NCBI GenBank assembly: GCA_002451155.1
Contig: DKBG01000042.1
Span: 12,133 to 76,132 of the forward strand
Reading direction: 5' to 3'
Origin: Ignavibacteria bacterium UBA6906
GTDB taxonomy: Bacteria > Bacteroidota > Ignavibacteria > UBA10030 > UBA6906
Length of the DNA: 64,000 bases
The notes beneath the pieces were generated by a model. It did no database searches, was not told the DNA's origin, and saw only the letters and a list, made by a program, of their open reading frames with translations. The position numbers were made by a program, and so were the translations under genes. Positions 1 to 53,392 of the stretch are shown here, one piece after another (positions within the stretch are counted from its first letter, which is position 1; the number at the start of each line of letters is the position of its first letter).

Positions 1-3000
1 GCTCCTCGCGAACCGCTCTGGGCCTTCTCGGCTCTCATTGCGGGATCGAGGAGGTCATCATCCCGGATCTGAGTTGGACATACGAACATTGTTTCCGGAC
101 AGTCACAACAGTCCCGCTTACCGAAACCTATGCGCTTGATGTCCCGCGGTTGATAGAGACGGTGCAGCGGAAGATTGCCGATAATCCCGCCTGGAATCTC
201 ACGGGAGCTGTTGCCCTGAACAACCCGCACAATGCGACGGGCCAGACATTTGATCAGGATGACATACGACGTTTGCTCTGCTGGCTCCTCGAGCACCGGG
301 TGACCGTTATTGACGACCTTGCGTACCAGAATGTTGCCGCGTCGCCGGATCTCAGCGGTCCATTGACGCTCCGCCAGATGGCGGACGACCTCCTTCGGAA
401 CGGTCAGATCTCGGGAGAGCAGGCAGAGTGTCTTATTACGGTTCATTCTGTCTCGAAAACAGATTCACTTGCCGGATCCCGGTTGGCCATTGCCGAGATC
501 CGAAACGAACGTCTTCTGGCCAGGTTCCGGCAGGTCACTGCGTCGATTTTGCCCAACGTGGGGGCTATCTTCCTTTCATACCTTTTCTACCGTCGCCCGG
601 TTGACGATGTCCGCCATTACTGGAAGCTTCGGAATAGTATCTTCGACACCAGAATGCACGCCCTCGAGGAGGCGGTCGAGAATATCCCCGCCGCCCGGAA
701 CCGCTACGGGATCACCATCCGCCGTCCAACCGGAAGCATGTATCCGCTCATGGTTATCTCCCGGCTTCCAGCAGGGCTTTCCCTCGACTGGCTTTCCGCC
801 GGACTGGCACGGCAGGGAATCGGATTGCTGCCACTGTCAGCCTTTGCACGCACGGAGGATGGTTTCGAAACCGGACGAAAGACTTTCCGGTTGACGCTGG
901 GAGGAAGCGACAGCGCGGATCGGCTCCTGCCGAAAACCAGGAGAGTCCTCATTGATCTCAACCGGATGATCGCCGATGAGGAGTCCAGGTACAACAGACG
1001 CGTGCCGTCAGGCCGGACCGGCCGGTCGGGTTCTCCAGCAGTGCATACGGAGGTCGCCGCACGGTGGGATGCACTGTTGCAGAAGGTAACACAGGAGTGC
1101 GCTGCCGCTGCGCGCACGCATCGGGAACGAACATTCGGGCTGACCGGCAGGGCCCCGGAGGTGAATAGTTTTCTCGATCGCTCGCTGCCGGAACGTTTAC
1201 AGACCGTGCGGCAGCGTTTTGCCGACCGTGCCGCTCATGTGGCGGATCTCCTTGCCTTCACGCGGACGGATGGCGGCAAGGAGCTCGTACGGGTCCTCGA
1301 GCGCGAATTCTACAAAGACCATCTCACATCACGGCAGCAGCGATTTCAATCAAGGCCGTACGACCGGACCGTTCACCCGACCCAGATGTACTCCCTCCGG
1401 GCGGAAATGCTCTGGGATTCTGCGATCGAATCCATCCTGGCACATTCGGATACGCCTGGAACTCTCCCAAAGCAGATCGCACGCGCCCTGTTCAGGGAAT
1501 ATGCGGGGATGGACGTGGCAATCGGCTCTGCTGATGAAGGGGACGAACTGCTGTGCGACCTGGACCGGCTTATCGCGGCGGAAGATTTTCTGTCCATCCA
1601 CGGGGAAGCCTCCTCTCCTTCGTTTCTTTCCTACTGGGGCGACTGGGATGGAAGCACCCGTCCATCCGGCCAGGGGCACAGACTGGTGGCAACGATCCTC
1701 GTCGCGAACGTTGAACGCCTGGCCCGGCTGCTCAGAATGCTCTACGATCAGAATCGCTCTCTTGCCATCGACCCCGCGCTGCTACGGGACATGGAACAGC
1801 TTCCGGTCCGTTCCTCCCGATTTCGAAAACTCCTCGATGAAATCACGATCCTGACCCATCAGCTGGAGCGGAGATATAAGGGGCTTCTCCCGTTCCATAT
1901 CACTCCGAGCCGGCTCCGGAGGGTGGGCATGCAGCTCCACCTCGCCCGCGATCCCCTGACCACACTCTGGCAGCACAACGACCGTCTCGAACGCCGGATG
2001 CTTGCGCTCCGGGAGGAGCGCAAGCGCGCGCTGCAGTATTACTTCAGTCTGAACAAACAGCTGCGGAAGGCGCTGCATTCACACCTCCCATCGCTCCGCT
2101 CCAGCCTCGGGAACCCGGACCTCGCGATTCGCGCGGCATCCTACCGGGACCTCTTGCAGCGTTTCGTGATCACTCCACGGATCCACCAGAACATGGTCAC
2201 CGCTCAGGATCCGTTCGCCATTGACACGACGGTCCACAACATCATGGAGATCAACGAGATCAGCGGGGCATCAGGAAATCCGGGAATGATCCTTGCCCTC
2301 CAAATCAGCATGTCCACCGAACCGGAGGCCCTGATCACGCTGGACCGGAAGACCAGGGCGCAGAGGGACAACGTGTTCCGCGGCCGCCCGGACCTGGAAC
2401 TGCCCGGGGTCTGGCTGATTCCGCTCTTTGAAGATCTGAACGCCGTCACCGCGATCCCCCGCTACCTGGACAAGATCTGGGAGTATGCCGTGCAGAGCCG
2501 GCGGCTAAGCCAGGAAGTCTCCGCCCGATTCAGAGAGATGGTGTGTGAGGTATTCATCGCCGGCTCTGACCTGAGCCAGCAGGTCGGGCAGACCGCCGGC
2601 GCTATGATCTTTCGAGAGGCGAAGTACCAGATTGTCCGCTGGCTCGCGGACAGAGGTCTCGTCAGTGATGTGCGGGTGAAAATGGGGTGTGGCGAACCGA
2701 TGCAGAGGCAGGGCGGATACTACGCACCCGCGTCAGGCAGGCCCGCCTTCATCCGCTCACGGGAAAACGATGCGCGACTGGCGCGCCACGTCCGGGAATC
2801 CACCCGGCGGAGCACCCGGTATGCAACAACACCCCTTATGGGTGTGTTCTCGGGAGGGGACCTACGCACATTTCAGAGCGCCGTCTCGGAGCAGCTCCGC
2901 TCGCTTCCGGTGAAGGAATATGCGGACCTTCTCTACCACGTCCGCGCCGCACAATACTTCCACTCCCACGAGCTATCACGAGCTGCCGAGCCGTTCGTCG

Positions 3001-4244
3001 AGACGCGATTGAAGTTCAGCGCGCGGGGAGAACAGGAAATTGAGCGTCTCACCATTGGGCGCCGCGATCCGCTCTTTGAGGAATTTTCCAAGAGTGCGAC
3101 AGAGAATTTCCGGACGATCGTTTACGGACGCGAAGAAGATGTTGTGGGAATACATCTGATTTCCTACTTCATCGCGCGGACTACGCCCTCACTCAGGGAC
3201 AGACCGACCTTCCGCCCCGGCAAGGGTGTAGCCGAAAGTCAGGGCCAACTGATCATCGGACGGATCGCCGAGACCATCCCCCTGGCAAAGCACGGAAGCC
3301 TCCTGCGGGCCATCGCCCACAATCAGGCACAGACGTTTCTCCTCGGCATCAACCAGCTTACCACCGGCCTGTTCCGTGCCCTCGACACGTTCGCGCAGAC
3401 GCAGTTCGTGGAGGGGAAAGGTGAATACCTGATCGCGGACCGGGTGCTTCCAAACCTTCCGGTCTACGAGATGCTCCACACGCTGCGCCTGTATCAGGAC
3501 ATGGATCTGACGTATCTGAAGCAAATGGAACGAGCCTTCCCGGCGGGGAATTCCTGTTTCACTGTCCTTCGCGAAGATCTCGATTCGCTCCGGCGCTACG
3601 TCGGACCGCTGCAGAAGGAGCTGATCCGCCGGCACGGGATCGCGGTCGCCGACTTCTTTGAGGGGGACCGGTTTATTGCCGACCTTCTGCCCACTCTCCG
3701 TCCAGACCTGGCTGTCCTGATGCAGCCGGACCTTTTTAACAGGAGCTATGACCTGCTTGAGGGACAGATCGACGGACCGGTAGACGAGAACTGGAAGGGA
3801 GAAATGTGTCGACTACTTGCGATGCCGGAGGAAGTTGCACTCTGGCGCGGCCGGGCATGGGAACTCCTTGAGCGCCCGGTATATGGACGGCTCGAAAGCT
3901 TTGTCGAGCTCGCCCTTGCCCTTTCCTCTCTCCCGGGCCGCCTGGACCAGCGGGAGAGTGAGGGCCGTGCCTCCCTGACTCGCAGACTCCGGGGACAGCC
4001 GGCCATGCAGGAGTTTCTCACGTCCACTCAAGATGACTCCATGCGCGAGTTTCTCGCTGCCGCGTTTGAGTACCTCTCCGGCCTGTCACGAAACCGCATG
4101 GAAGTACCAACGAGTGTCATTAAAGCCCTCAAAGACATCGAGAAGATCATCGGGATCGAAGAACAGGCACTTTCGACCCGCGAGCAGGACCTTCTTCGCT
4201 TCTTCCTCCTCAAGATCGCGCGACTCTGCGGCGAGAACGGTTGA
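1..4244 (+). CDS. Large multidomain protein, 5' end outside the window. The N-terminal part is a class I/II aminotransferase-like PLP domain. The C-terminal ~1000 aa is a divergent phosphoenolpyruvate-carboxylase-like domain.
   Basis: The reading frame is open from nt 1 through the listed TTG at 150 with no stop, so the gene starts upstream. Aminotransferase motifs: NNPHNATGQ (NPxNPTG-like), SVSKTDSLAGSRL (SxSK PLP-lysine motif) and a downstream FRLTLGG arginine. PEPC-like motifs in PEPC order: TVHPTQ (compare TAHPTE), IPLFEDLNAV (compare PLFETxxDL), FIAGSDLSQQVGQTAG (compare GYSDSxKDAG), KMGCGEPMQRQGGYYAP (a degenerate FHGRGGxxGRGGxP loop), SLLRAIAHNQAQTFLLGI (compare LRAIPWIFAWTQNRxxLPxWLG), and a C-terminal ...ENG (compare ...NTG). 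Ends with TGA at 4242-4244. Confidence 0.6.
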   Translation, partial: SSRTALGLLGSHCGIEEVIIPDLSWTYEHCFRTVTTVPLTETYALDVPRLIETVQRKIADNPAWNLTGAVALNNPHNATGQTFDQDDIRRLLCWLLEHRVTVIDDLAYQNVAASPDLSGPLTLRQMADDLLRNGQISGEQAECLITVHSVSKTDSLAGSRLAIAEIRNERLLARFRQVTASILPNVGAIFLSYLFYRRPVDDVRHYWKLRNSIFDTRMHALEEAVENIPAARNRYGITIRRPTGSMYPLMVISRLPAGLSLDWLSAGLARQGIGLLPLSAFARTEDGFETGRKTFRLTLGGSDSADRLLPKTRRVLIDLNRMIADEESRYNRRVPSGRTGRSGSPAVHTEVAARWDALLQKVTQECAAAARTHRERTFGLTGRAPEVNSFLDRSLPERLQTVRQRFADRAAHVADLLAFTRTDGGKELVRVLEREFYKDHLTSRQQRFQSRPYDRTVHPTQMYSLRAEMLWDSAIESILAHSDTPGTLPKQIARALFREYAGMDVAIGSADEGDELLCDLDRLIAAEDFLSIHGEASSPSFLSYWGDWDGSTRPSGQGHRLVATILVANVERLARLLRMLYDQNRSLAIDPALLRDMEQLPVRSSRFRKLLDEITILTHQLERRYKGLLPFHITPSRLRRVGMQLHLARDPLTTLWQHNDRLERRMLALREERKRALQYYFSLNKQLRKALHSHLPSLRSSLGNPDLAIRAASYRDLLQRFVITPRIHQNMVTAQDPFAIDTTVHNIMEINEISGASGNPGMILALQISMSTEPEALITLDRKTRAQRDNVFRGRPDLELPGVWLIPLFEDLNAVTAIPRYLDKIWEYAVQSRRLSQEVSARFREMVCEVFIAGSDLSQQVGQTAGAMIFREAKYQIVRWLADRGLVSDVRVKMGCGEPMQRQGGYYAPASGRPAFIRSRENDARLARHVRESTRRSTRYATTPLMGVFSGGDLRTFQSAVSEQLRSLPVKEYADLLYHVRAAQYFHSHELSRAAEPFVETRLKFSARGEQEIERLTIGRRDPLFEEFSKSATENFRTIVYGREEDVVGIHLISYFIARTTPSLRDRPTFRPGKGVAESQGQLIIGRIAETIPLAKHGSLLRAIAHNQAQTFLLGINQLTTGLFRALDTFAQTQFVEGKGEYLIADRVLPNLPVYEMLHTLRLYQDMDLTYLKQMERAFPAGNSCFTVLREDLDSLRRYVGPLQKELIRRHGIAVADFFEGDRFIADLLPTLRPDLAVLMQPDLFNRSYDLLEGQIDGPVDENWKGEMCRLLAMPEEVALWRGRAWELLERPVYGRLESFVELALALSSLPGRLDQRESEGRASLTRRLRGQPAMQEFLTSTQDDSMREFLAAAFEYLSGLSRNRMEVPTSVIKALKDIEKIIGIEEQALSTREQDLLRFFLLKIARLCGENG

Positions 4245-4294: not shown

Positions 4295-6625
4295 TCAGTC
4301 CACCTGAATCTCATCCAGAAAGAGCCACGCTTTCTTTCCCGCACCCGGATGCCACGGCGGGCAAACCCTGATGGCCCTGGCCGTAATCCGCACGTATCGT
4401 GCCCAGGTCGGCTCACACACTTTCGCCAACCCCTTAATAAACGGCTCTTTTGTGTCGAGCGGAGTGTCATTCGTGAATTCCGCGACGTGGAGATACGATT
4501 CTCCGTCGCTTGATACCGCAAACGACACCGCCGCGGGCAGGAATACCCAGCTGACAGAGTTCTGGAGGAAATTTACTCCGATCCGGGAGACTTCCTGCGA
4601 CCTTCCGAGATCTACGACTGCCTCAACATCGGTTCCCTCAAATCCCTGCCAGTTCCCGTCGCCGAGGTTACGTGAGCCGAAGACCCCGTTTGTAAGACCC
4701 AAGCTCCCTCCCGCCGTATATATTGCACTGTGGGGTGGTGTCAGTCGGACGGCTTTCCCCGTCGCGCGGCTGAACCGATAGTGAATCGTGGACGGGGTGC
4801 TCAGACATGATTTCCCTTCGAACGCGGCGGCGCGCAGCGTCGAGGTACTGGCAAGCCGGACCGGACCGACATACTCCGGAGATTCCGGTGTGGGTTCGGT
4901 GCCGTCGAGCGTGTATCGCAGGTTCGCCCGGAGGTATTCGCACTCGAGGTGAACATCGAGCGCCGGGATCGCGGGATCAAGCAGTGCTTTCGCGTTGACG
5001 GAAAAAAGACTCCGTGCACTGTTGATCCGGTGAGCAGCAAGCCGGGAAAAATGCGCCGGAAGCCGGGAAGCGAAATCCTCCCATGATCTCCGGTCCTCGG
5101 GAGACCAGAGGACCTCTGCAAGCGCACAGAGTCTCGGGAGTGCCATGTACTGAACGCGCTCAAAAGTCTCTATGTACTCCGTCCAGACATTTCCCTGGGC
5201 ACCGAGGATGTGCTTTTGTTCGGCAGCCGTCAGCCCTGGGGGGATCGGCTCATACGTGTAGACTTTGCGGATCGTCGTGAAGCCACCGATGGCGCGCGGC
5301 TCAAGTGCCTGGTTCCCCTGATAGTAATCAAAGTAACAGTGCGTGGAGGGCGTCATGATCGCGTCATGCCCCTGTCTCGCTGCTGCCAACCCTCCGTCGA
5401 TCCCCCTCCACGACATGACGGTCGCCTCCGGCGCAAGTCCACCTTCAAGGATTTCATCCCATCCAATCACGCGACGGCCGCGGGAATTGAGAAATTTCTC
5501 GATGCGCGTAATGAAATAACTCTGCAGTTCTGATTCATCCTTCAGGCCTTCGGCACGGATCCGCTCCTGACAGCGAGGACATTCCTTCCATCGGGTCTTC
5601 GGGACTTCGTCGCCCCCAATGTGGACGTATCTCCCCGGAAACAGGCCGCAAATTTCGGACAGGACATTCTGGAGAAACTCAAACGTCCGGTCGTTCCCCG
5701 CACAGAAGACGTCATCATAGACACCCCAGCGCGTTCCAACATCAAACGGTCCGCCTGTGCACGAAAGTCCAGGATACGCCGCCAGGGCCGCCAGCGAATG
5801 ACCGGGCATCTCGATCTCGGGGATGATCTCCACATACCGTTCCCGCGCGTACCTGACGACATCCCGGATCTCATCCTGCGTATAGAATCCACCGTAGACC
5901 GACCCGTCAGGGACTGCGCGCCACGCACCGACGGATGTCAGGAGGGGGTACGTCTTGATCTCGACCCGCCATCCCTGGTCTTCTGTGAGATGCCAGTGAA
6001 AACGGTTCATCTTGTGCATTGCCAGGATATCGATATATTTCTTCACCGAATCGACCGGGAAGAAATGCCGGCCCACATCGAGATGCATTCCCCTGTATCC
6101 GAAGCGGGGGTGGTCCTCGATGACGACACAGGGAATGCTGGTCCAGTGTTCTCGCTCCGACGCGTCCTTCTCCGGCACCCCGGCTGTAAGCAGCTGGCGG
6201 AGGGTTTGAATTCCATAGAACACACCGGGGGCACCGGAAGACGTTATGCGCACGCCCCTCGGCGTCACCGTCAGATTGTACGCCTCGGTTCGGTCTGCAG
6301 CTGAGTCCTTCTTCACCGAGAGGTGAATGTCGTGAGCCCGACCAGCGCCGATGACGACCCTCAGCGGCACGCCGGTTATTGCTCCGAGCACATTCGCCGC
6401 ATAGGAGGCCACCTGTGCGAGTTCACTGTCAGGCGAGACGACGGCAATGCGACTGTCGGGACGCACGCGAAACACACTCCCATGAACAGTCATCCTGGCC
6501 GGTATCGGAATCACCGATAGGGCCGGGGGGGGCTGGCGGTCACCGGAGGTGTTCGCGATCGCAAGACCTGCAGAGGCAACGAGCGTCAGGAGCGCTGAAC
6601 GGAAGGTGTACATCGGGCTCTCCAT
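4295..6625 (-). CDS. beta-N-acetylhexosaminidase, glycoside hydrolase family 20, with a C-terminal F5/8 type C (discoidin) domain and a signal peptide
   Basis: GH20 catalytic motif HIGGDE (RYVHIGGDEVPK) inside a TIM-barrel-like region. The N-terminal hydrophobic leader LLTLVASAGLAIA looks like a signal peptide. The C-terminal ~150 aa have a discoidin-like composition. Confidence 0.85.
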   Translation of the reverse strand: MESPMYTFRSALLTLVASAGLAIANTSGDRQPPPALSVIPIPARMTVHGSVFRVRPDSRIAVVSPDSELAQVASYAANVLGAITGVPLRVVIGAGRAHDIHLSVKKDSAADRTEAYNLTVTPRGVRITSSGAPGVFYGIQTLRQLLTAGVPEKDASEREHWTSIPCVVIEDHPRFGYRGMHLDVGRHFFPVDSVKKYIDILAMHKMNRFHWHLTEDQGWRVEIKTYPLLTSVGAWRAVPDGSVYGGFYTQDEIRDVVRYARERYVEIIPEIEMPGHSLAALAAYPGLSCTGGPFDVGTRWGVYDDVFCAGNDRTFEFLQNVLSEICGLFPGRYVHIGGDEVPKTRWKECPRCQERIRAEGLKDESELQSYFITRIEKFLNSRGRRVIGWDEILEGGLAPEATVMSWRGIDGGLAAARQGHDAIMTPSTHCYFDYYQGNQALEPRAIGGFTTIRKVYTYEPIPPGLTAAEQKHILGAQGNVWTEYIETFERVQYMALPRLCALAEVLWSPEDRRSWEDFASRLPAHFSRLAAHRINSARSLFSVNAKALLDPAIPALDVHLECEYLRANLRYTLDGTEPTPESPEYVGPVRLASTSTLRAAAFEGKSCLSTPSTIHYRFSRATGKAVRLTPPHSAIYTAGGSLGLTNGVFGSRNLGDGNWQGFEGTDVEAVVDLGRSQEVSRIGVNFLQNSVSWVFLPAAVSFAVSSDGESYLHVAEFTNDTPLDTKEPFIKGLAKVCEPTWARYVRITARAIRVCPPWHPGAGKKAWLFLDEIQVD

Positions 6626-6669
6626 GGGAACAATTCACAGAACATGAACAAATCGGTTTCATTACCAGC

Positions 6670-7770
6670 TCAATCACGCCAGAGTTTCGAATCTTGCCGA
6701 ACATGCCATCGCTGCACGTGCTTGCCAGCCAGGCGAAGAGTCACTGCAGCTTCGTATCCATCCGGAGCAGCCTGGAGCGTCACCTGACCCAGCCGATCGT
6801 CTCCGGGGGGTTGACGAAAGCGGAGATCCTTGAGACTCTCCGCCCAGGTCCCGTGCGCCGTGCGGTAGTCCCGCTGAAGCTCGTATATCTGCATCAGGAG
6901 TTCTTTCGCACCCCACGCGGAATCTGCCAGGAACAGTCCGGATGCGTCATCGGCGAACTGCACATATCCCCAGCGTTCCGGCCGATGCATGTCAACGACT
7001 CCCTGTGGTGACCAGACCCAGTTGTGCTCCGGCCGGCCCGGGATCTTCCTGTAGTGCCCATCCTCTATCCGGACATCCCATTCCACCCGGGAGAAGTTGA
7101 TTCTCCAGCTATCACCAATCTCCGGAGGCGCCGGGCAATGTGCATAGGTCAGGAGTGACTGCCAGGGAATCGCCAGCTCGACACTCCAGCCGGTATCGAC
7201 ATCGGAAGCGGCGTTGAGGGTTCCTGCCACGTGAACGGCAGTCCTGAGCCCGACAATATCCCACGAGTCAACTGGGGGTCCCCCATCGCGATACGGTTTC
7301 GGGAGGAAAAGATCCCACCCTGTGTTCAGGGCGTTCATCTCAAACTCATAGTATTCGTGGTTGTCCCCGTTCGGGTCGATGAAGACCTCGAAATCGTTAT
7401 CCTGAAAGATCACCGTATCACGTTGCCGCAGGGTCGCCCACACATGAGGCTCCTGAAGTTCCGCGGCCACGTACAGATACTCACTGTCCCAGAGCATTTT
7501 CACCCTGGTCCGGAATGTCGGAGGTGGCATTCCCTCCCCCTCAATGTCAACGAAATTGTCGGTCCACAGAGCCCGGGTCCAGGCAGACTCGGAGAGTCTG
7601 CCATCAATCGTCAGCGGCTCAGCGGCAAACAGGCATAGATACCCTTTTGGGCGGGTGGTGATCGGCTGGCCGAAGGCGGAATTCATCCCTGCAATGATGA
7701 GCAGAGAGAGGGTAGCGAGACAGAGCCGGGCAGTAGCGCTGCGGCGGCGGACGAGTCTGGATTTTCTCAT
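6670..7770 (-). CDS. CBM9-like (carbohydrate-binding family 9 / DOMON-like) secreted protein
   Basis: The ORF track extends to 7926, but a signal-peptide-like start MRKSRLVRRRSATARLCLATLSLLIIAG maps to ATG at 7768-7770. That start overlaps the upstream fucosidase stop as ATGA. The motif FQDNDFEVFIDPNGDNHEYYEFEMNALNTGWDLFL is typical of CBM9 / family-9-like binding domains. Confidence 0.65.
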   Translation of the reverse strand: MRKSRLVRRRSATARLCLATLSLLIIAGMNSAFGQPITTRPKGYLCLFAAEPLTIDGRLSESAWTRALWTDNFVDIEGEGMPPPTFRTRVKMLWDSEYLYVAAELQEPHVWATLRQRDTVIFQDNDFEVFIDPNGDNHEYYEFEMNALNTGWDLFLPKPYRDGGPPVDSWDIVGLRTAVHVAGTLNAASDVDTGWSVELAIPWQSLLTYAHCPAPPEIGDSWRINFSRVEWDVRIEDGHYRKIPGRPEHNWVWSPQGVVDMHRPERWGYVQFADDASGLFLADSAWGAKELLMQIYELQRDYRTAHGTWAESLKDLRFRQPPGDDRLGQVTLQAAPDGYEAAVTLRLAGKHVQRWHVRQDSKLWRD

Positions 7771-9329
7771 CTGTCCGGGGCCGCGATGTTGTAGACGGAG
7801 ACTGTTGAAAGAGTGGGGCAGGCGCGCGATTGGCGTATCGTGACGCGGATGCAGGATGTCCGAACCGGGGGGAAGAGGAGAATTCGCCTTGCTCCGACCG
7901 TTGTTCCCTCCGCGACGGTTGTCCATCCCCTGTTCCCACGGACATCGATCCCAAACGCTTCGATTCGCTGACCGAGGGAGATCTGTTCCCGGAGAAGGAG
8001 AGCGTTAATCTCCCGCTCGGCGCCGAGATCTATTTCCACCCATCCCGTGTGGATGGAGTCATCGGTTGCCCAGTACGTTTGGGGACGGCCATCTACTGTG
8101 CGAACGGCGGCATACTCCAGATCACCGCCGCGGGTATTCGAGGCCGTGGCGGGGCGTCCTGCTGCCAGATCCTCTCTGAATGCAAAATCGAGGTATGCGC
8201 GAAGGGCGTGCAGCTGCCGCGCATCGTTGTCGGGTATCAGTCCGCGCCGATCGACGGGGATGTTCAGCAGAAGATTCGCGTTGCGCCCCACGGAGGCGAA
8301 ATAGATTCCGACCAGCGTTTTGAGGTCTCTGACGAGCGAATCCTCGGCGGCGTGATAGTACCACCCGGGCCGAATCGATACGTCGCATTCCGCAGGGACC
8401 CAGGCATCCCCATCGGCATGTCCGCTGGGAAGTTCATGAAAACGTTCATAGCCGGGATAGACTTCATCGCGTCGCAGAAAGGACCAGTTGGTCTCGCCCG
8501 CGGCTCCCTGTTCATTGCCCACCCAGCGGACATCCGGACCGGCATCACTGAAGATGACTGCCCGCGGCTGGCATTCCCGCACCACCGTGACAAACCCTGG
8601 CCAATCGTAGACCTGTCGCTTCCCGTTTGGTCCTTCTCCGCATGCACCGTCGAACCAGACTTCGAAAACCTCTCCATATCCGGTGAGGACTTCACGCAAC
8701 TGGTTCTTGAAATGCTCGTTATACGCCGGGGAATCACCGTACCGTGGATCGTGCCGGTCCCAGGGAGAGAGGTACACTCCGAACTTCAGCCCGAATTCCC
8801 TGCATGCGTCCGAGAGTTCCCGAAGCACGTCGCCTCGCCCTGAGCGGAACGGGCTGTTCCGGACCGTGTGCTCTGTGAAGGCCGAAGGCCAGAGACAGAA
8901 TCCGTCATGGTGTTTTGCCGTCAGGACTATCCCTCTCATTCCGGCTTCTTTGCAGACACGCGCCCACTGGCGGCAATCAAGGTCGACGGGATCAAATAGG
9001 GCAGGCATTTCTGTGCCGTCACCCCATTCCCGGTCGGTGAATGTGTTCATGTTGAAATGGACGAAGGCATAGTACTCGAGGTCCTGCCAGAGAAGCTGAC
9101 GTTCCGAAGGAACGGGGCTAACGGGGCGCGGTGGGTCGATCCGTTCGCCCCCAGGTGCACCCGCCCGGATACATGGAAGCAGGAGCAGCAAACCGAAGCA
9201 GAAGCGCAGGAGATGTTTCAGCTGACTCTCATCCGCACCGAGCGATGCGTCGGATCTTCCTTCCATCGCGGAGGTTGTCCTGCTCTCGATCGTCTGAACC
9301 ATATTCTCATTCCCCGTGCCAAACGGCAT
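7767..9329 (-). CDS. alpha-L-fucosidase, glycoside hydrolase family 29, with a C-terminal F5/8 type C domain
   Basis: GH29 signature LTAKHHDGFCLWPS. The hydrophobic N-terminal segment LRFCFGLLLLLPCIRAG suggests a signal peptide, so the true start may be an internal Met near 9266. The C-terminal ~130 aa are discoidin-like. Confidence 0.85.
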   Translation of the reverse strand: MPFGTGNENMVQTIESRTTSAMEGRSDASLGADESQLKHLLRFCFGLLLLLPCIRAGAPGGERIDPPRPVSPVPSERQLLWQDLEYYAFVHFNMNTFTDREWGDGTEMPALFDPVDLDCRQWARVCKEAGMRGIVLTAKHHDGFCLWPSAFTEHTVRNSPFRSGRGDVLRELSDACREFGLKFGVYLSPWDRHDPRYGDSPAYNEHFKNQLREVLTGYGEVFEVWFDGACGEGPNGKRQVYDWPGFVTVVRECQPRAVIFSDAGPDVRWVGNEQGAAGETNWSFLRRDEVYPGYERFHELPSGHADGDAWVPAECDVSIRPGWYYHAAEDSLVRDLKTLVGIYFASVGRNANLLLNIPVDRRGLIPDNDARQLHALRAYLDFAFREDLAAGRPATASNTRGGDLEYAAVRTVDGRPQTYWATDDSIHTGWVEIDLGAEREINALLLREQISLGQRIEAFGIDVRGNRGWTTVAEGTTVGARRILLFPPVRTSCIRVTIRQSRACPTLSTVSVYNIAAPDR

Positions 9330-10004: not shown

Positions 10005-10874
10005 TTACGGTCGTGGACCTGTAGCAATATTCTTGAGGTATCGCTGAAGGTCTGCGATGTCATTTCGGCTGGTCAGGTCCGGCACATGTTCACGCAGGGG
10101 TATCGTCTGAACCGAAGCGGTCCCTGCCCCGAGCATCATCATCACTGCCGTCGGCAGTTCCTTCTCTTTGCGCAGCGGATGATACGGGACGGCTTCCAGG
10201 AACGGGAGTATCCGGTCGAACACAAAGCGCCAGATGTTCATGCTCACGCCAACCCTGCCGGTCGCCTCCCTTGTCTGCGCGATATGCGCGGCATCGGGCT
10301 TTTCGGTGATCGTTCGAAGCGTACCGTCAGGATTCGTCACGATGACGGCAAAGGCTTCGATCCGTTCACGGCTAAACAGAAGGCCTTCGCGATCATAGTC
10401 GATCATTGCACACTCAGCATTCGTGGTCCTGAGCAGCTCGAATGCTGCACGAGAATAGAGGTTGTCGCTGTTGCAGACCGTGAACTGCTGGCCTGCCCAA
10501 TCGGGTCTTGTGCGGAGCGCCTGCAGCAATGCATCCGCTGTGCCGGCCGGTTTTGAACGCCCGGCAGGGACTTCCTGGACGGCATAGGAAATCTCCATGC
10601 CTCGATACGGGTTGTCCCGTTCCCTCGCCCCGTAATGCGCCCGAACTGATCGGTCCTCAGGACTGACAACAATAACGGTATCAGTATATCCCGCTGCCAC
10701 CGCGTTCTCAAGAAGGTAATCCATGAGGGGACGTCCGTCGACACCGAGGCCAATCATCGCCTTTGTCTTTCTGTCGGCCTGGCCTTCCAGGTCGGCGCCC
10801 AATGTAACTGATGCGGGCACCTTCATCCGGGACGCAGCACCTCCCGCGAGGATGACAAGGTTTCCTTCGTTCAT
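10005..10874 (-). CDS. sugar-1-phosphate nucleotidyltransferase (NTP_transferase family)
   Basis: N-terminal LVILAGGAASRMK plus GLGVDGRPLMDYLLEN, the G-x-G-x-R-x-K nucleotide-binding signature of sugar-phosphate nucleotidyltransferases. Its start overlaps the upstream kinase stop by 4 nt (ATGA), indicating translational coupling. Confidence 0.75.
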   Translation of the reverse strand: MNEGNLVILAGGAASRMKVPASVTLGADLEGQADRKTKAMIGLGVDGRPLMDYLLENAVAAGYTDTVIVVSPEDRSVRAHYGARERDNPYRGMEISYAVQEVPAGRSKPAGTADALLQALRTRPDWAGQQFTVCNSDNLYSRAAFELLRTTNAECAMIDYDREGLLFSRERIEAFAVIVTNPDGTLRTITEKPDAAHIAQTREATGRVGVSMNIWRFVFDRILPFLEAVPYHPLRKEKELPTAVMMMLGAGTASVQTIPLREHVPDLTSRNDIADLQRYLKNIATGPRP

Positions 10875-11971
10875 GGCCCATTCCCCTCCTTCCTGGCACT
10901 TGTCCCCGCGTCCGGTCTGATTATGTAGGCCTGTCCACCCACATCTTCAATCGCGCGGCGGACCCTGTCGGGGTTGTCCGGAGCGTACGCGAACATGCAT
11001 CCACCGCCGCCGGAGCCGTTAATCTTTCCCCCCAGCGCTCCGGCAGAGATCGCAGCTGAGATCATCCTGTCAATCCGGGGGGTTGAGATACGGAGGACTT
11101 CACGAAGGACCGTCTGGTGTTCGGTCAGAAGTTCTCCTAGTTTTCGATGGTCAACTTCGACCCGCCCGAGCATCTTTCGCGCCTCCTCAGTCATCGAATG
11201 GTTGCGGATAGTTCCGAGCAACAATGTTTTCTCATCAGGAGTGAGGTCGGCCGCAACGCCTTCGATATCCTCAGCGGTGGAATTCTTCAGCGTGAATCCG
11301 GGATACTGAGAATTCAGCCGGGCTACAAGTGATCGCACGCCCTGTTTTACCCGGGCTAGGATTCCCTTGGTATCCTTCGGTTCCCGGGAATCCCCCAGGA
11401 CGAATGTGCCGAGGTCAGCCTTCAGGCGACGGACCTGAACGAGGGGGTCGAAATCGATCACGATCACGCCTCCATATGCCGTAGAGAAATGATCCATCAT
11501 CCCTCCGGGCTCGCCGAACTCCAGCACTTCCGCCTCATGCGCGAACCGGGCAATCGCATCCGGTCCGAGATCCGTCGACTGATCGCTCATGCGGGCAAGA
11601 AAATCGATCCACGCCACAACGAGAGCTGAGGAGCTTGAGGTGCCGGAATTTATCGGAATTTCGCCGTGCACAGTGCATTCGACGCCGCGTGAAAAAGAGA
11701 ACCCCTGGCGCAGCAGCACATTCACCGCGCTCTTGAAATAGTCCCTCTCTTTGGAATACGGAAGCCTCTCTCCCAGAACAAATGTTTCCCTGCTGCTGAC
11801 GTCAGGCAGGTCCACCACCGCGGCCCGGTCACTCCTGTGCCTTCCCTCAATAGTGATTCGCAATGAGATCGCGCAGGGGATGACCGGAAGAGCGAGGTAA
11901 TCTTGATGCTCTCCGAACAGGCAGATTCGTCCGGGGCTTGTCACATGCAGGTATTTTGAACCGGGCTTCAT
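10871..11971 (-). CDS. GHMP-family sugar 1-kinase (galactokinase/fucokinase-like)
   Basis: Galactokinase-type motif RICLFGEHQDYL (compare GRVNLIGEHTDY). GHMP phosphate-binding loop PINSGTSSSSALVVAW. C-terminal GKINGSGGGGCMFAYAP. Confidence 0.8.
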   Translation of the reverse strand: MKPGSKYLHVTSPGRICLFGEHQDYLALPVIPCAISLRITIEGRHRSDRAAVVDLPDVSSRETFVLGERLPYSKERDYFKSAVNVLLRQGFSFSRGVECTVHGEIPINSGTSSSSALVVAWIDFLARMSDQSTDLGPDAIARFAHEAEVLEFGEPGGMMDHFSTAYGGVIVIDFDPLVQVRRLKADLGTFVLGDSREPKDTKGILARVKQGVRSLVARLNSQYPGFTLKNSTAEDIEGVAADLTPDEKTLLLGTIRNHSMTEEARKMLGRVEVDHRKLGELLTEHQTVLREVLRISTPRIDRMISAAISAGALGGKINGSGGGGCMFAYAPDNPDRVRRAIEDVGGQAYIIRPDAGTSARKEGNGP

Positions 11972-25134: not shown

Positions 25135-28100
25135 GTGACTCCAGAACACGACAACATCACCCGGCAACCCGCACGAAGACTCCGAACCAACGTCATTCGG
25201 GCTTCAGGCAGGTTCATACGGCGGTTTCTGATAGGGACAGCGCTATTCATCCTCCTTCTTGGGATCCTGTTGCAGATCCCGCCGGTTTCCTTGCTGGTGG
25301 CCCGCTCGGTGTTGAACCTCGTCAACCCCTGGCCCGGGACCGTGGCGTCGATTGGCTCGGCCGGAGGCAGCTGGTTTTCTTCCCTCTCGCTCACGAACAT
25401 CCGAATCGCAAGTGCCTCGGATTCGCTGTTCATCTCGATTGACACCCTGCGGGCCTCGTATGACCTGAGCGCGTTGCTCGGCGGCACGCTCCATTTTCGG
25501 CAGCTCTCCATATCCCGTCCGACCGTCAGAACCCGTCTCCTTCCGGGAGGGAACCTGGTCCTCCTTCAACCGTTTGCCTCATCGGACACAGCCAGCCAGG
25601 ACACATCCGAGGGGCTCAGAGTCCGCGGCGATACTCTTCAACTGACAAACGGCGAGTGCACACTGTTGTTCCCTTCCGACACGACATTCCGACAAATCGA
25701 GGTTCATGATATTCACCTTCGGGGCGATTCCATCCTGATCGGGGGCGGCATTACAGCCTCCATAGATACTCTCCACTGCCGCGCGGCGATTGAGGGCCAG
25801 CGCGCGGGCGAATTTCGGGTCGACGCCGCAGGCACCCTTTCCGGGAGTTCACTTGATGTCCGTTCGCTCTCGATTGCGTCCGCGAGAAGCCGGATCGTCG
25901 GGAGGGGGTACGTTCCTCTGCCTTTTTCGCCGGTCCATTCCCTCCCCGGTACGAACCTCAGGCTCTCAGCCTCGCCCGTCTCGTACGCGGATCTTCACCT
26001 TCTTCTTCCCGGATTCGGACCAGAGGGAGAAGCCCGGGTCGATCTCGGAATCGCTGGAAACGGTGATTCGTCGTTCACCAACCTCACCCTCACGTTCCCC
26101 GGCGGGGGAAACATCGGGCTGACCGGGAAAGCCCGTGCGATGCCAGGCAGAATTCTTGCGCTGGACTTCACGGGTGCGAGCGAGAGGTTCAGTCCGTCAA
26201 GTCTCACCGGACCGCCGGATACCTCTGAATCGCTCCGGAGCAGGTTCAGAGTCATCGGCGCCGGGAGTTCTCCTGCTGATTTTTCCGGTTCAGCCAATGT
26301 TGAGGTGCTCCCCTCTCGTGTCGCGGACATGGGACCGGTCGAGGGGACACTGAACGCAGAGGCCCGTCAGGGCAACATCCGCGCGACAGTTCGAGGGGAC
26401 GTGGGCCCGATTCTGCTCAATGCCGACGTGCGCCTCACAACGTTCGATCCGGTTCCTGAATATGCCGTTAAGGGTACACTCACCATTCTCCATTCAGACA
26501 ATCCTGAGAATCTGCTCGAACGCCTGGGGGGGCTTGTATCAGAGTTCTCCCTTTCCGGCAGGGGATTTGACCCCGATTCAGCCCGGGCACATGCAACCCT
26601 GAAAGGGACGTGGAGTGCAAACCCCTACTGCACTTCCCTTCTGGTCCAGGGAACTTTTGTCTGCGACACCCTGCGTGCGAGCGGAGAACTTGGTACCGGA
26701 ACTGGCTTTGTGCGAACGACTGCCGAGGCAATTGTGAGAGAAGTTCCTCTCTACAGGATCCGTGTCCCCGAGTTCCGGACCATCTCGCTTGCCGTCTTTG
26801 GGAGCACGATCCCTGCTACGAGTCTAACAGGATCACTCCAGGCTGAAGTCTCGGGAGCATCGCTTGCCGAGCTGACCGGAACGGCATCACTCAGACTCGA
26901 TTCTTCACATTTCGCGAGCATTTCAGTGCAGGACCTGCGCACAGATATCACGATCGAACACGGACAGGTCCGGGCCACCGCGTCTGCCGCGAGTGACGCC
27001 GGCGCGATTTCGTTTCAGTGCGTGGCTGATCCCTTTGCAGCCTCCCCGTTTCTGACTCTCGAGGAATCAATGTTCCGGGGCATTGATCTCGGAAAGATTC
27101 TCGGAACGGACGATCTGTCAAGCGATCTGAACGGGAGCGTACAGATCCATGCTGAGGCCAGATCGATGCGTGATCTCTCCCTCGTACTGGATGGTTCGCT
27201 GCAGGACGGAGGAGGGGCAGTACAGGCCGGCGCGCGGGTATCGCTTGACAGCTCGACGGTCAACCGGCAGAAGATACGAGATGCAACGATCGCAATGACG
27301 CTTCTGGACGGAAGCCTTGAAACGTCCGTTGAAATCCGGACCCCAGATGGTGGGTTGACAGGACACGCACACGCGCGGCCTTTTGACCAGACTCCCTCAC
27401 TCTCGGTTCCGGCCTTGCATCTGAACCATCTTGATATCGGGGCCCTGACCGGCCGGAACGGCCTGCGCACCGATCTCACGGGCACACTCGCAGGGGCACT
27501 CCAGGGGGAATTGATTGAGAGCGCGACCGGGAACCTCTCGGTTGACCTCCTGAATTCGACAGTCAATGCTGCCACGCTGCAACGGGGCTCGCTTCAGGCC
27601 ACGATGGAGGGTGGGCCCCTGTCAGTTCACGGCAGAGCGGACTTCACAGAAGGCCGCGTGGCCCTTGAAGCCACCGGCCGCGTGACCCGGGGAGGCATGC
27701 GCGGGAAACTCTCCCTCGATATTTCCTCCAGCAATTTCGCGCCCCTGCTTGACGCCGACAGTCTTTTCCCATCAGCGCTCGTCGTGCGCGGTTTGCTCGA
27801 GGGAACCTGGGGGCCCCCGGCAGAAACGGATTTCAGGGCAACCCTCCTTGGACGTGGTTCATATCACGATTTCAAGGTCGACACGCTCGTCTGCGGGCTT
27901 TCGGTTCACGGGCGCACAATCGTAATCGATACGGCGCAGCTCATCACAAACGTCGGATCTCTTACGGCAGAGGGAACTCTTGTGTCCTTCGATTCGATGT
28001 CCAGTTCGTACTCGGATCTTTCGTTCTCTGCTTCCGCATCATCGTTCCAGCCACTTGAGCATATTTTGGGAATCCCCCCGACACTTTTGCGCAGCGCAAC

Positions 28101-30312
28101 CGTGTCGCTCCACGCTTCCGGGCCACCGGAGATGACGGAGATTCAGTGAGCTGCCGATCTTGACATCGCCGCAGCTGGTGACCTGGCAATAACTTCCTTG
28201 CAGGCGTCAATGGACGGGCGATTCGGGCCCTCTCTGAAACTCGAATCAGTACAAGGGAACGCGGAACTCAGCGGTTTCCAGTACGGTGCGTTCGCCCTGG
28301 AAAATGCGTCAGTCACGCTCCACACGATCGAAGGCAGGCATGAGATCGCAGCGTTGATCCGGTTCGACAGGCATTTCTCCGTAAGCCTGGGCGGGACTGC
28401 TTACACGGACCCCGACAGCGTGACGGTCCGTATCGATTCTCTTGTTGCCCGTAGTCTTGACCAGACATGGGTTCTTGAGCGGCCGGCAACGATTTCGTAT
28501 GGGGCGCGGTTTATTGTCCGGGACTTCGCTCTTCATGCCGGGTCAAGGGACCTCATAATCGATGGCATTCTCGACCCACAGGGCGAGCAGAATTTTACGG
28601 TCGTAGCGGATTCGATGAACCTGGGAAATTTTGCAAAGGTGTTCGGGCGCACGGACCTTGAGGGCTTGCTGTTTGCCAACCTACGAATCGAGGGTCCGGC
28701 TGGCGGAGCCCATGCGTCGGGCCGGATCTCGGCCCGGGTCCGGGAAGCCGGACGGCCTATAGGGGACTTCTTGGCAAACCTGGACTGGCACAGACAGGTG
28801 CTGTCCATCGATGGGAAGATCGACCAACCCGGCGGGGGAATCCTGACCATCTCCGCAATGCTGCCGGTCGAACTTTCTCTCCGTGGCGCTGCGGCGGAAG
28901 GGAACCCGGAGTCGACTCAGACAAAGGGAGACGGATCAGTCGACGTGTTGTTGACTGCGGACAGATTCAATTTCAACTTTCTCAGGCCATTTCTCTCTTC
29001 CCGATCGATCAGCTCGCTCGAGGGAATCCTTACTGCGAACATCCACGCGACGGGATCACTCGGCTCTCTTATGGCGACGGGTGGAGCATCGATTGACAGC
29101 GGCCGCATTGGCATCTCCCCTCTGGGAGTAGTGTATAGTGCCGTCCGGCTGCGATGTACCGCTCAGGGCAGAGAACTCCGTATCGAGAATGCAGAGGCCG
29201 CATCTGGGGAGGGGACTCTCCGTTGGAGCGGAACGCTGGATCTGGATGATCCTATGGACCCCAAAATGAACCTCGAGATTGCCGCGCAGCAATTCCTTGC
29301 CGCCCAGACTCCGGTCACGAAGGCAAACCTCTCGGGGTCATTACAGGTGGAAGGCACGGTGTCGGCGCCGACAATAACGGGCAGTCTGCTGATTAATGAA
29401 TCCTATTTTGTCATTCCCGAAACCATAGGGAGCAGCAGCGTGGAAGCCGTCAACCTGACTGCGGACGATTATGCAATGCTGGCAGAGCATTTCGGGTACA
29501 GACCACGCGTTGTTGCTCCCCGGCATGAGCCGTCCACGGTCGAGCCGACGCTCGACCTCACACTCGAAATTGCGCAGAACACGTGGATACGCAAGCGCAT
29601 CAATCCTACACTCGCAATCGAACTCAATGGGCGCGTCCGGGTCCTGCGAAGTCCGGGGCAGCCCATACGTCTTAGCGGCACACTGAGGCCAGTGACCGGG
29701 CGGAGTTACGTCGGACAATTCGGACGGCAGTTTGAGATTACGGGAGGCGAAATCGTCTTTGGGGGGATACCGCAGGACCTCGAATTGCACATTGATTCCG
29801 AATACAAAGTCCCTTCCAAAGGCGGATCCGGTCTTTCCGAGGTTGTGATCCGGATGAAGGTGCAGAGCAGACTTGGCCGGTTCACCTTCTCGCTGACCTC
29901 CGATCCCGCAATGGACGAGTCAGAGATCCTCTCCTATCTTACAACGGGCCAATCCCGGGCGGGCGCGCTCGCTAACACGGCAGACCAGGGTGGGCTTGCC
30001 GGAGCCATGGCACTGGAGCAGCTGGTGGGCGTTGCAGGAGGTCTCACGGAGGGCTCAGTCCCGATCGATGTGTTCCAGATCCGCCAGGATGGGGCGAGGG
30101 GAATTACAATTGTTGCCGGGAATTATGTAAATCCGAAGACGTACATGGGAATCCGTCAGCCCATTCTCATCAATCAGGGAACGCAGGAAACGTACTACGA
30201 CACGCGGACTCAGTTTGAGCTGGAATATGAAGCGCAGCCCTGGCTGTTTCTGAACTTCCAGGGCGGAAGCAGCCGACTGCTCCTGTTCCTCAAAGCCCGA
30301 CACGCGTACTGA
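25135..30312 (+). CDS. tamB: translocation and assembly module protein TamB (DUF490 C-terminus), interrupted by one in-frame TGA at 28147-28149; a possible pseudogene or recoding site
   Basis: N-terminal TM anchor (FLIGTALFILLLGILLQIP) and a long beta-rich repetitive body. The two listed ORFs, 25135-28149 and 28198-30312, are in the same frame and separated only by TGA. Translation reads straight through as ...PEMTEIQ*AADLDIAAAGDLAITSLQASMDG... The second ORF has no Shine-Dalgarno sequence and a TTG start. Confidence 0.7.
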
Positions 30313-30315
30313 GCC

Positions 30316-53315: not shown

Positions 53316-53392
53316 CAACACCTCCAACCGGCGAATGCGGAGAACATAATTACAGAATACTGAGTTTTCGTCGGAATATCAAGGCTGCCCGC

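Follow-up and report, generated by a model that had tools for sequence, protein, structure and literature searches.

What does the reading frame that enters this locus at its left edge encode, and does the long region behind its aminotransferase domain work as an enzyme? The locus is a stretch of 64,000 nucleotides from Ignavibacteria bacterium UBA6906 (contig DKBG01000042.1, positions 12,133 to 76,132 of the forward strand), which is called the window throughout. An earlier note, made from the letters of the window, had described here a class I aminotransferase fused to a large, divergent domain resembling phosphoenolpyruvate carboxylase (PEPC), in an open frame that starts upstream of the window. 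All parts of this description were borne out in the present study. Frame 3 of the + strand is free of stops from nucleotide (nt) 3 to the stop codon at 4242-4244, and its translation of 1,413 residues agrees at 100% identity with residues 456-1868 of P0001, a database protein of 1,868 amino acids (aa), whose numbering is used below unless domain numbering, that of the C-terminal 1,069 aa, is indicated. Therefore, the gene starts upstream of the window, with 455 codons outside, and the window holds its 3' part (3..4244, +; codons 456-1868 and the stop). The frame encodes part of a conserved, single-copy, cytoplasmic protein of three modules: an alpha/beta domain resembling the fold of pyridoxal 5'-phosphate (PLP) enzymes (module 1, residues 1-330), an aminotransferase domain (module 2, about 430-790) and a PEPC-like domain (module 3, 800-1868). 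The aminotransferase domain and a short linker occupy 3..1034 (+) of the window, the first ~25 residues of the domain lying outside, and the PEPC-like domain of 1,069 aa, an eight-stranded barrel with a large helical shell, occupies 1035..4241 (+). The three-module architecture and the homology of module 3 to PEPC are considered to be nearly certain.

Module 3 is a remote PEPC homologue with the same barrel and helical shell. First, residues 800-1868 were modelled with AlphaFold2 from 60 sequences, with a predicted local distance difference test score (pLDDT) of 82.6 and a predicted template modelling score (pTM) of 0.84, and the model was compared with the whole Protein Data Bank (PDB) using Foldseek. 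This combination of structure prediction and fold search, which the earlier note had put forward as a check, returned 28 matches at E <=1.5e-6, all of them PEPC, and the next best match had an E value above 0.1. Both the eight-stranded beta-barrel and the all-helical shell specific to PEPC are present in the model, which also shows the fold of archaeal-type PEPC. Each of the eight predicted strands (TVH, LSYWGD, FVITPRIH, LQISM, WLIPLF, EVFI, RVKM and LRTF) ends in a family-invariant motif, and these motifs follow the order of the eight strand-end motifs of PEPC. Second, the family profile was aligned using hhalign with a profile of 11 PEPCs, made from E. coli ppc and ten diverse ppc genes annotated on chromids and megaplasmids. 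The alignment reached E 0.0015 over 138 columns and paired ISMS with ISMA, PLFED with PLFET, AGSDLSQQVG with GYSDSxKDxG, and KMGSGEPMQRQGG with FHGRGGxxGRGG; against E. coli Ppc alone the E value was 0.096, and the runs with -alt and -norealign gave fragmentary, uninformative alternatives. Third, in an ungapped scan with position-specific scoring matrices (PSSMs) of 11 PEPC motifs, six segments (HPT, GD.DG, PLFE, SD, the Gly-rich loop and RP..R) peaked at the collinear site with z scores of 4.7-5.5, and the other five (IDIRQES, ISM, RVTEQGE, LRAIPW and the C-terminus) peaked elsewhere, a failure of the strict collinearity test. The equivalences proposed below for strands 3 and 8 are tentative because the scan placed those motifs elsewhere. 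The LRAI motif and the C-terminal Gly of the family were aligned with those of PEPC by MAFFT.

The motifs that the earlier note had read as PEPC-like, namely HPTQ, PLFED, GSDLSQQVG, the Gly-rich loop KMGCGEPMQRQGG, LRAIAHNQ and ENG, are all present in the stated order, and they are joined by the collinear motifs WGDWDG (W.GGDRDG in PEPC), ISMS (ISMA), GGDLRTFQS (GGLRVTEQG) and LRDRPTFR (GSRPAKR). These motifs are fully or almost fully conserved across 60-76 relatives with 32-71% identity, far beyond chance. All of them are encoded on the + strand. At the end of strand 1, RTVHPTQ (910-916; 1365..1385), which includes HPTQ (1374-1385), corresponds to TAHPTE of PEPC; all seven residues are invariant, and His913 is the counterpart of E. 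coli His138 (MAFFT; PSSM z 4.8). Strand 2 (198-203 of the domain model) carries the invariant YWGDWDGSTRPSGQGH (999-1014; 1632..1679), corresponding to SWMGGDRDGNP (PSSM z 5.3), and in the motif alignment Trp248, Asp252 and Asp254 are kept and Arg253 is replaced by Trp. On strand 3 (377-384 of the domain model), ITPRIHQ (1178-1184; 2169..2189), with T, P, R, I, H and Q invariant, is the probable counterpart of RIDIRQ, although tentatively placed; judged by strand order, His1183 probably takes the place of Arg396, with Arg1181 two residues before it. Strand 4 ends in LQISMS (1221-1226; 2298..2315; Q, S and M invariant), which hhalign pairs with VISMA, including Ser475. On strand 5, IPLFED (1261-1266; 2418..2435), which includes PLFED (2421-2435), corresponds to PLFET, and Glu1265 is aligned with Glu506 (hhalign; PSSM z 5.5; P, L and E invariant). 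Strand 6 carries FIAGSDLSQQVGQ (1306-1318; 2553..2591), which includes GSDLSQQVG (2562-2588) and corresponds to MIGYSDSAKDAG of PEPC; Asp1311 is aligned with Asp543, and Gln1314 stands in place of Lys546 (hhalign; PSSM z 5.0; A, G, S, D, L, S and Q invariant).

Strand 7 and the Gly-rich loop are formed by VRVKMGCGEPMQRQGGYY (1345-1362; 2670..2723), the counterpart of LFHGRGGSIGRGGAP, with the loop itself at 2679-2717 (hhalign; PSSM z 4.7; G551 and G553 in domain numbering and E, P, M, Q, R, Q and G invariant). Here Met1349 is found for His579, Cys1351 (Ser in most relatives) for Arg581, and Arg1357 corresponds to Arg587. The loop of the family, K-M-G-(S/C)-G-E-P-M-Q-R-Q-G-G, keeps only Gly580, Gly582 and Arg587 of the PEPC pattern FHGRGGxxGRGG, and was rightly called degenerate before. 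For strand 8 (610-613 of the domain model), GGDLRTFQS (1406-1414; 2853..2879; T612 and Q614 in domain numbering invariant) is the probable counterpart of GGLRVTEQG, in an uncertain register. Beyond the barrel strands, LRDRPTFRPG (1519-1528; 3192..3221) corresponds to GSRPAKR, with Arg1522 and Arg1526 at the places of Arg699 and Arg703 (MAFFT; PSSM z 5.0; L, R, D, R, P and R727 in domain numbering invariant), and LLRAIAHNQAQT (1555-1566; 3300..3335), which includes LRAIAHNQ (3303-3326), corresponds to LRAIPWIFAWTQNR, with Arg1557 at the place of Arg713 (LRAI aligned by MAFFT; L, R, A, I, H, N, Q and Q766 in domain numbering invariant). The protein closes with CGENG (4227..4241), including the terminal ENG (4233-4241); in every full-length relative, G1066, E1067, N1068 and G1069 in domain numbering form the end of the chain and are fully or almost fully conserved. 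The family ends in GE(N/S)G and PEPCs end in (R/Q)NTG, so that the terminal Gly (G883), common to 11 of 11 PEPCs, is shared and the preceding residues differ. The supposed excess of about 250 aa in the C-terminal region over PEPC was not upheld: the domain is ~186 aa longer overall (1,069 aa versus 883 aa in E. coli Ppc), and ~140 aa longer after LRAI.

When the residues invariant in the 11 PEPCs are taken as the reference, module 3 keeps His138, Trp248, Asp252, Asp254, Ser475, Pro503, Leu504, Glu506, Ser542, Asp543, Gly580, Gly582, Arg587, Arg699, Pro700, Arg703, Leu712, Arg713, Ala714, Ile715 and Gly883. Thus, the catalytic His is present in RTVHPTQ, the metal ligands are present in PLFE(D/E) and AGSDLS, which are invariant and aligned by hhalign, and the three Arg residues 699, 703 and 713 are present in LRDRPT.R and LLRAI. 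Mutagenesis of PEPC has shown His138 and Arg587 to be essential and His579 to be dispensable. Low model confidence was observed at domain residues 553-559 (window 2694-2714), after the Gly-rich motif, and pLDDT fell below 50 at domain residues 722-757 (window 3201-3308), after the RP..R motif; these two, among the low-confidence loops of the model, lie where PEPC has mobile catalytic loops, which would be consistent with a working active site. The Mg2+ ligands of PEPC are one Glu and one Asp, and carboxyphosphate is deprotonated by a conserved His (PMC10176493); the counterparts of all three residues are kept in the family.

The fusion itself recurs widely. A word-indexed search detected at least 779 relatives, and nearly all of the best 120 measure 1,850-1,900 aa and share 53-72% identity with the full length of the query. 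Their sources are assemblies in NCBI, JGI, ENA and Logan, and they belong to Ignavibacteriota, to Bryobacterales and other Acidobacteriota, and to metagenome-assembled genomes (MAGs) labelled Bacteroidota. In a pattern scan with one genome per species, a relative of the PEPC-like domain was observed in 259 species genomes of at least three phyla, and the cultured carriers include Rosettibacter primus, Stygiobacter electus and Melioribacter sp. OK-6-Me. All relatives available in full length show the fused form of ~1,700-1,950 aa, and among 245 matches of a profile search all representatives longer than 1,690 aa carry the PEPC-like domain from residue ~700-860 to the end, save one that is cut at its C-terminus. 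The domain junction (…TRRVLIDLNR.IAEE..YNR…) is conserved and free of stops. A search for orthologous fusions, which the earlier note had advised, found the same ~1,870-aa architecture, with the conserved junction, in hundreds of independent assemblies, cultured isolates among them, so that the fusion is no assembly chimera. The frame might otherwise be an artefact, either a chimera or a read-through of separate aminotransferase and PEPC-like genes, and one protein, P0156, does look like a stand-alone PEPC-like gene. Nevertheless, the architecture of ~1,860-1,890 aa is present in more than 100 independent protein clusters (NCBI, JGI, ENA, Logan) and in 80 genome loci, the junction is free of stops, and the closest relatives of P0156, P0151 and P0154, are fused; the chance of an artefact is negligible, and a chimera is ruled out at this locus by the recurrence of the fusion. 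P0156 itself has 994 aa (L094:412-3396, JGI 3300005077), is 39% identical to P0001 857-1868, and has all family motifs and no aminotransferase part; what the 400 nt between it and the contig end encode is unrelated. The two readings are a rare stand-alone PEPC-like gene and a rearranged or misassembled contig.

The aminotransferase half is conventional in its core, and the NPxNxTG-like and SxSK motifs claimed for it were recovered. PF00155 (Aminotran_1_2) matches window residues 17-303 (E 2e-14, 53.8 bits, cut-off 19.7) and P0001 residues 435-758 (E 1e-15), with scores of 53.8-57.9 bits across both runs, and is the one domain that Pfam found in the protein. Sequences in the PDB matched by a profile of the full-length protein were class I aminotransferases only, and those matched by single-sequence HMMER searches were aminotransferases only. 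An AlphaFold2 model of residues 1-797 (pLDDT 92.3, pTM 0.90) matched aminotransferases in Foldseek at E values from 4e-15 to 1e-12, among them 1-aminocyclopropane-1-carboxylate (ACC) synthase (4e-15) and Thermotoga aspartate aminotransferase (AspAT; 3e-14), with TM scores of ~0.65-0.69 of the target. Four motifs of the PLP site, all on the + strand, have their key residues invariant in 76 sequences. NNPHNATG (528-535; 219..242), with N528, P530, N532 and G535 invariant, is the counterpart of NPxNPTG, whose Asn we take to bind PLP O3' as in class I aminotransferases generally. IDDLAYQ (558-564; 309..329; D559, D560 and Y563) presumably provides, by motif position, the Asp paired with the pyridine N and the O3'-binding Tyr. 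In HSVSKTDSLAGSR (603-615; 444..482, HSVSK at 444-458; S606, K607, D609, A612, G613 and R615), K607 of the SxSK motif is by its position presumably the Schiff-base lysine, and Arg615 the phosphate-binding residue. Within TFRLTLGG (749-756; 882..905; F750, R751, G755 and G756), we infer that Arg751 corresponds to the Arg by which the alpha-carboxylate of the substrate is bound. Module 2 is thus, judged by its sequence, a complete class I aminotransferase domain in which every PLP-binding motif is invariant. It shares the NPxNxTG, DDxxY, SxSK..G.R and C-terminal FRL Arg motifs with the class I (fold-type I) enzymes, such as Thermotoga and Thermus AspAT, the kynurenine aminotransferase Bna3 and ACC synthase, whereas the giant protein adds a preceding PLP-fold-like domain and the PEPC-like tail of 1,069 aa.

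The preceding domain lies upstream of the window. The N-terminus, whose recovery the earlier note had also suggested, is given by the database protein P0001 as 455 residues that include a PLP-fold-like domain of ~430 aa. Residues 1-797 were modelled as two seven-stranded alpha/beta domains (1-330 and 430-790), which are connected by a long helix (353-398) and form one compact unit in the model. The N-terminal domain has no SxSK motif and keeps NFHIGNP and an invariant Y103-x-P-R-G-G, which in sequence resembles the Tyr lent to the active site by the partner subunit in class I aminotransferases. The model suggests that this domain may replace, within one chain, the second subunit of the aminotransferase homodimer, forming a pseudo-dimer. 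An origin of the two domains by duplication is suggested weakly, in topology alone, as hhalign of one against the other gave E 0.19. Compared with P0001, the relatives are on average 44% identical in residues 1-430, 61% in the aminotransferase domain and 56% in the C-terminal 1,069 aa.

Herein, we propose that module 3 would be an enzyme that depends on a divalent metal and, like PEPC, forms or uses an intermediate of the enolpyruvate type, and that its reaction would be coupled to transamination on one chain. This is the best explanation overall, with a probability of about 0.5. The active site would retain Glu1265 and Asp1311 for the metal, together with His913, Arg1357, Arg1522 and Arg1557, the hydrophobic W1000 and L1263, and a buried C-terminal Gly. 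The bicarbonate/phosphate side of the pocket would have been rebuilt through the replacement of His579 by Met, Arg581 by Ser or Cys, Lys546 by Gln, Arg253 by Trp and possibly Arg396 by His; therefore, an altered co-substrate or a reaction other than carboxylation is possible. In the simplest scheme, module 3 would make a 2-oxo acid from phosphoenolpyruvate (PEP), which module 2 of the same polypeptide would transaminate, and with oxaloacetate as the oxo acid the route would be PEP + HCO3- to oxaloacetate to aspartate. That module 3 is catalytically active at all seems probable from its conserved residues, and this specific route from PEP to aspartate is a tentative reading of them.

Several results weigh against this proposal. 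Among the Pfam and profile checks that the earlier note had named, PF00155 was found, PF00311 (PEPcase) gave no match at E up to 1 in the window protein and four full-length relatives, and the profile-profile match was marginally significant. The C-terminal domains of 10 relatives matched neither PF00311 nor PF14010 in Pfam at E up to 10 and nothing in NCBIfam, and a C-terminal HMMER profile had no match among PDB sequences at E up to 10. Likewise, a bridging profile search of 1.84 billion representatives returned 245 matches, all family members or fragments, and none towards PEPC. Outside the hhalign block, residues were equated by motif order and predicted strands rather than by superposition, and these assignments should be read as provisional. 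On the aminotransferase side, the named NCBIfam subfamilies (AspAT, DapC, HisC and others) scored at best <=29 bits against cut-offs of 276-675. In the relatives' loci, genes of aspartate or central carbon metabolism were not observed as conserved neighbours. Finally, PEPC-invariant residues have changed: Arg144 to Ser, Arg253 to Trp, Lys546 to Gln, Asp547 to Gln, His579 to Met, Arg581 to Ser (Cys in the window) and Gly583 to Glu, and the Trp-rich continuation after LRAI (Trp717, Trp721 and Arg725) is replaced. Therefore, classical PEP carboxylation may be lost or altered. Weak matches to ANG-1, DyP_N and RNA_binding (E >0.01, below cut-offs) were dismissed as noise.

These replacements bear on a rival explanation, in which the PEPC-fold domain is catalytic and its metal and enolate site serves a reaction other than PEP carboxylation, with the aminotransferase giving its substrate or taking its product. 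Candidates include decarboxylation or tautomerisation of oxaloacetate, hydrolysis or transfer on a PEP analogue, and enolpyruvate C-C bond formation with another electrophile. The replacement residues are themselves family-invariant, including those at positions 579, 581, 546 and 253, even in a subclade at 32-39% identity. Moreover, invariant motifs that have no PEPC counterpart are restricted to the family (THQLE.RY, HNDRLER, GNPGM, NQLTTG.FR, FPAGNS and RPDLAVL.QP..FN), the domain exceeds E. coli Ppc in length by the margin given above, and the family stands apart from all PEPCs at the HMMER level. However, His138, Arg587 and the Glu and Asp metal ligands, which are reported to be essential to PEPC chemistry, are all kept, together with Arg699, Arg713 and the terminal Gly, and the gene neighbours point to no alternative substrate. 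This rival is possible with rather less than an even chance, and an altered reaction and the route from PEP through oxaloacetate to aspartate are about equally likely.

In another explanation, the PEPC-like domain would be a non-catalytic pseudoenzyme with a regulatory or scaffolding role, for example in sensing aspartate, malate or PEP or as a platform for oligomerisation, which controls the aminotransferase or docks it to the assembly of the SPFH protein described below. About ten PEPC-invariant residues, including half of the Gly-rich loop, have been lost, the domain is not recognised by Pfam or NCBIfam, and the conserved pairing with a scaffolding-type SPFH protein would fit a structural role. 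On the other hand, a pseudoenzyme would usually be without its metal ligands and catalytic base, and here Glu1265, Asp1311, His913 and Arg1357 are invariant in 60-76 sequences of several phyla, down to 32% identity. The strongest conservation is also found at the eight strand ends, which form the active site in PEPC, and the mean identity of the 1,069-aa domain is close to that of the aminotransferase domain. Thus, a pseudoenzyme is the less likely reading because the metal ligands and catalytic His are invariant, and we consider it improbable. In the alignment of relatives across phyla, invariant residues cluster at the strand ends, a pattern that favours a catalytic domain over a scaffold as far as sequence conservation can indicate, as in the proposed metal-dependent enzyme coupled to transamination.

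The genomic context was obtained from the relatives' loci; the site upstream of the giant gene lies outside the window. In three independent genomes with called genes, an SPFH/Band-7 gene of ~325 aa is located 9-62 nt upstream of the giant gene on the same strand (for example, L002:9015-9992 and L003:8977-9966). In its product, a membrane helix at the N-terminus is combined with an SPFH/Band-7 domain (PF01145, E 2e-9) and a long coiled coil. Among loci L002-L083, this gene is directly upstream in 72 of the 75 with visible upstream DNA; the three exceptions (L058, L078 and L079) are Bryobacteraceae and Solibacteraceae MAGs. This arrangement implies a two-gene operon. The SPFH/Band-7 protein probably tethers or organises the giant enzyme at the membrane. 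The genes downstream are not conserved across the relatives' loci. A defence-system reading of the SPFH and giant proteins was rejected on the grounds that there is no PADLOC match, the gene is single-copy and the neighbourhood is housekeeping-like.

Compared with known systems, the protein represents a third PEPC-fold lineage whose architecture and operon are new and whose PEPC-like domain keeps half of the catalytic residues of PEPC; public databases label the protein only as an aminotransferase. The names found are "aminotransferase class I/II-fold PLP-dependent enzyme", "aspartate/methionine/tyrosine aminotransferase" and "hypothetical protein". PEPC is among the best-studied carbon-fixing and anaplerotic enzymes. 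Current reviews know the bacterial/plant types and the archaeal type alone, all of them stand-alone proteins; four PEPC types are described in a recent review, none of them fused, and the archaeal type (atPEPC) is a stand-alone protein of 55-60 kDa (PMC8100219). In contrast to the archaeal type (PepcA; PDB 3ODM; PF14010), the present domain has 1,069 aa, stands behind two PLP-fold domains, differs in several catalytic-loop residues, has no Pfam match to PF14010 and is not of stand-alone size. Relative to bacterial and plant Ppc (PDB 1JQN, 1FIY and 3ZGE; PF00311), it lies below every sequence-model threshold, is ~186 aa longer than the E. coli enzyme, has R144, R253, K546, D547, H579, R581, G583, W717, W721 and R725 replaced, and shares one polypeptide with an aminotransferase, encoded in an operon with an SPFH gene. 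No PEPC-like partner is described in a review of aminotransferase diversity (PMC9309667). BIO3-BIO1, the plant and fungal dethiobiotin synthetase-7,8-diaminopelargonic acid (DAPA) aminotransferase, also joins an aminotransferase and the enzyme of an adjacent step on one chain (PMC9309667), whereas its partner is a different one. A literature search on aminotransferase-PEPC fusions, SPFH-aminotransferase operons and PEPC in Melioribacter found nothing relevant.

With less than even confidence, we hypothesize that a third, hitherto unrecognised PEPC-fold lineage with a non-classical reaction might be coupled to a pseudo-dimeric PLP aminotransferase, with a dedicated SPFH/Band-7 scaffold organising it at the membrane. 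If true, this would represent a new metabolic module in Ignavibacteriota and Acidobacteriota. An active domain would make the protein either an enzyme that channels PEP directly to an amino acid or a PEPC scaffold retuned to new chemistry, and the latter, if true, would bear on carboxylase evolution and enzyme engineering. If the partnership holds, the operon would provide a rare defined soluble client of a bacterial SPFH protein. Cultured hosts exist (Melioribacter, Stygiobacter and Rosettibacter), so that the question is directly testable.

Several other features have been observed in the window. GC content is even, at 54-61% across the 64 kb, with no compositional break at the giant gene, and neither a tRNA gene nor an Rfam match at the gathering score was detected over the same length. 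Behind the giant gene, 4295-9329 (-) encodes a GH20 beta-hexosaminidase with a C-terminal F5/8 type C domain, a CBM9-domain protein and an alpha-L-fucosidase with F5/8 type C, followed by a pair of genes for a nucleoside triphosphate (NTP) transferase and a GHMP kinase at 10005-11971. On the contig of the closest relative, P0002, these three glycan-degradation genes are absent and the NTP-transferase and GHMP-kinase pair follows almost directly, which suggests a local insertion. At 25135-32526 (+), an open reading frame (ORF) of 1,004 aa with no Pfam match stands directly upstream of a TamB-domain ORF of 704 aa and an Omp85/POTRA (TamA-like) gene, an arrangement that may represent a TamB translocation-and-assembly module that is split or very long. 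Farther downstream, paralogous genes for dipeptidyl peptidase IV (DPP-IV)/prolyl oligopeptidase of family S9 are located at 33500-35749 and 49598-51832 (-), with two GH3 glycosidases, an ABC ATPase and a poly-ferredoxin-like protein between them and a HemN-type radical S-adenosylmethionine protein at 51924-53327. The gene content of this S9/GH3 region is ordinary for a polymer-degrading heterotroph.

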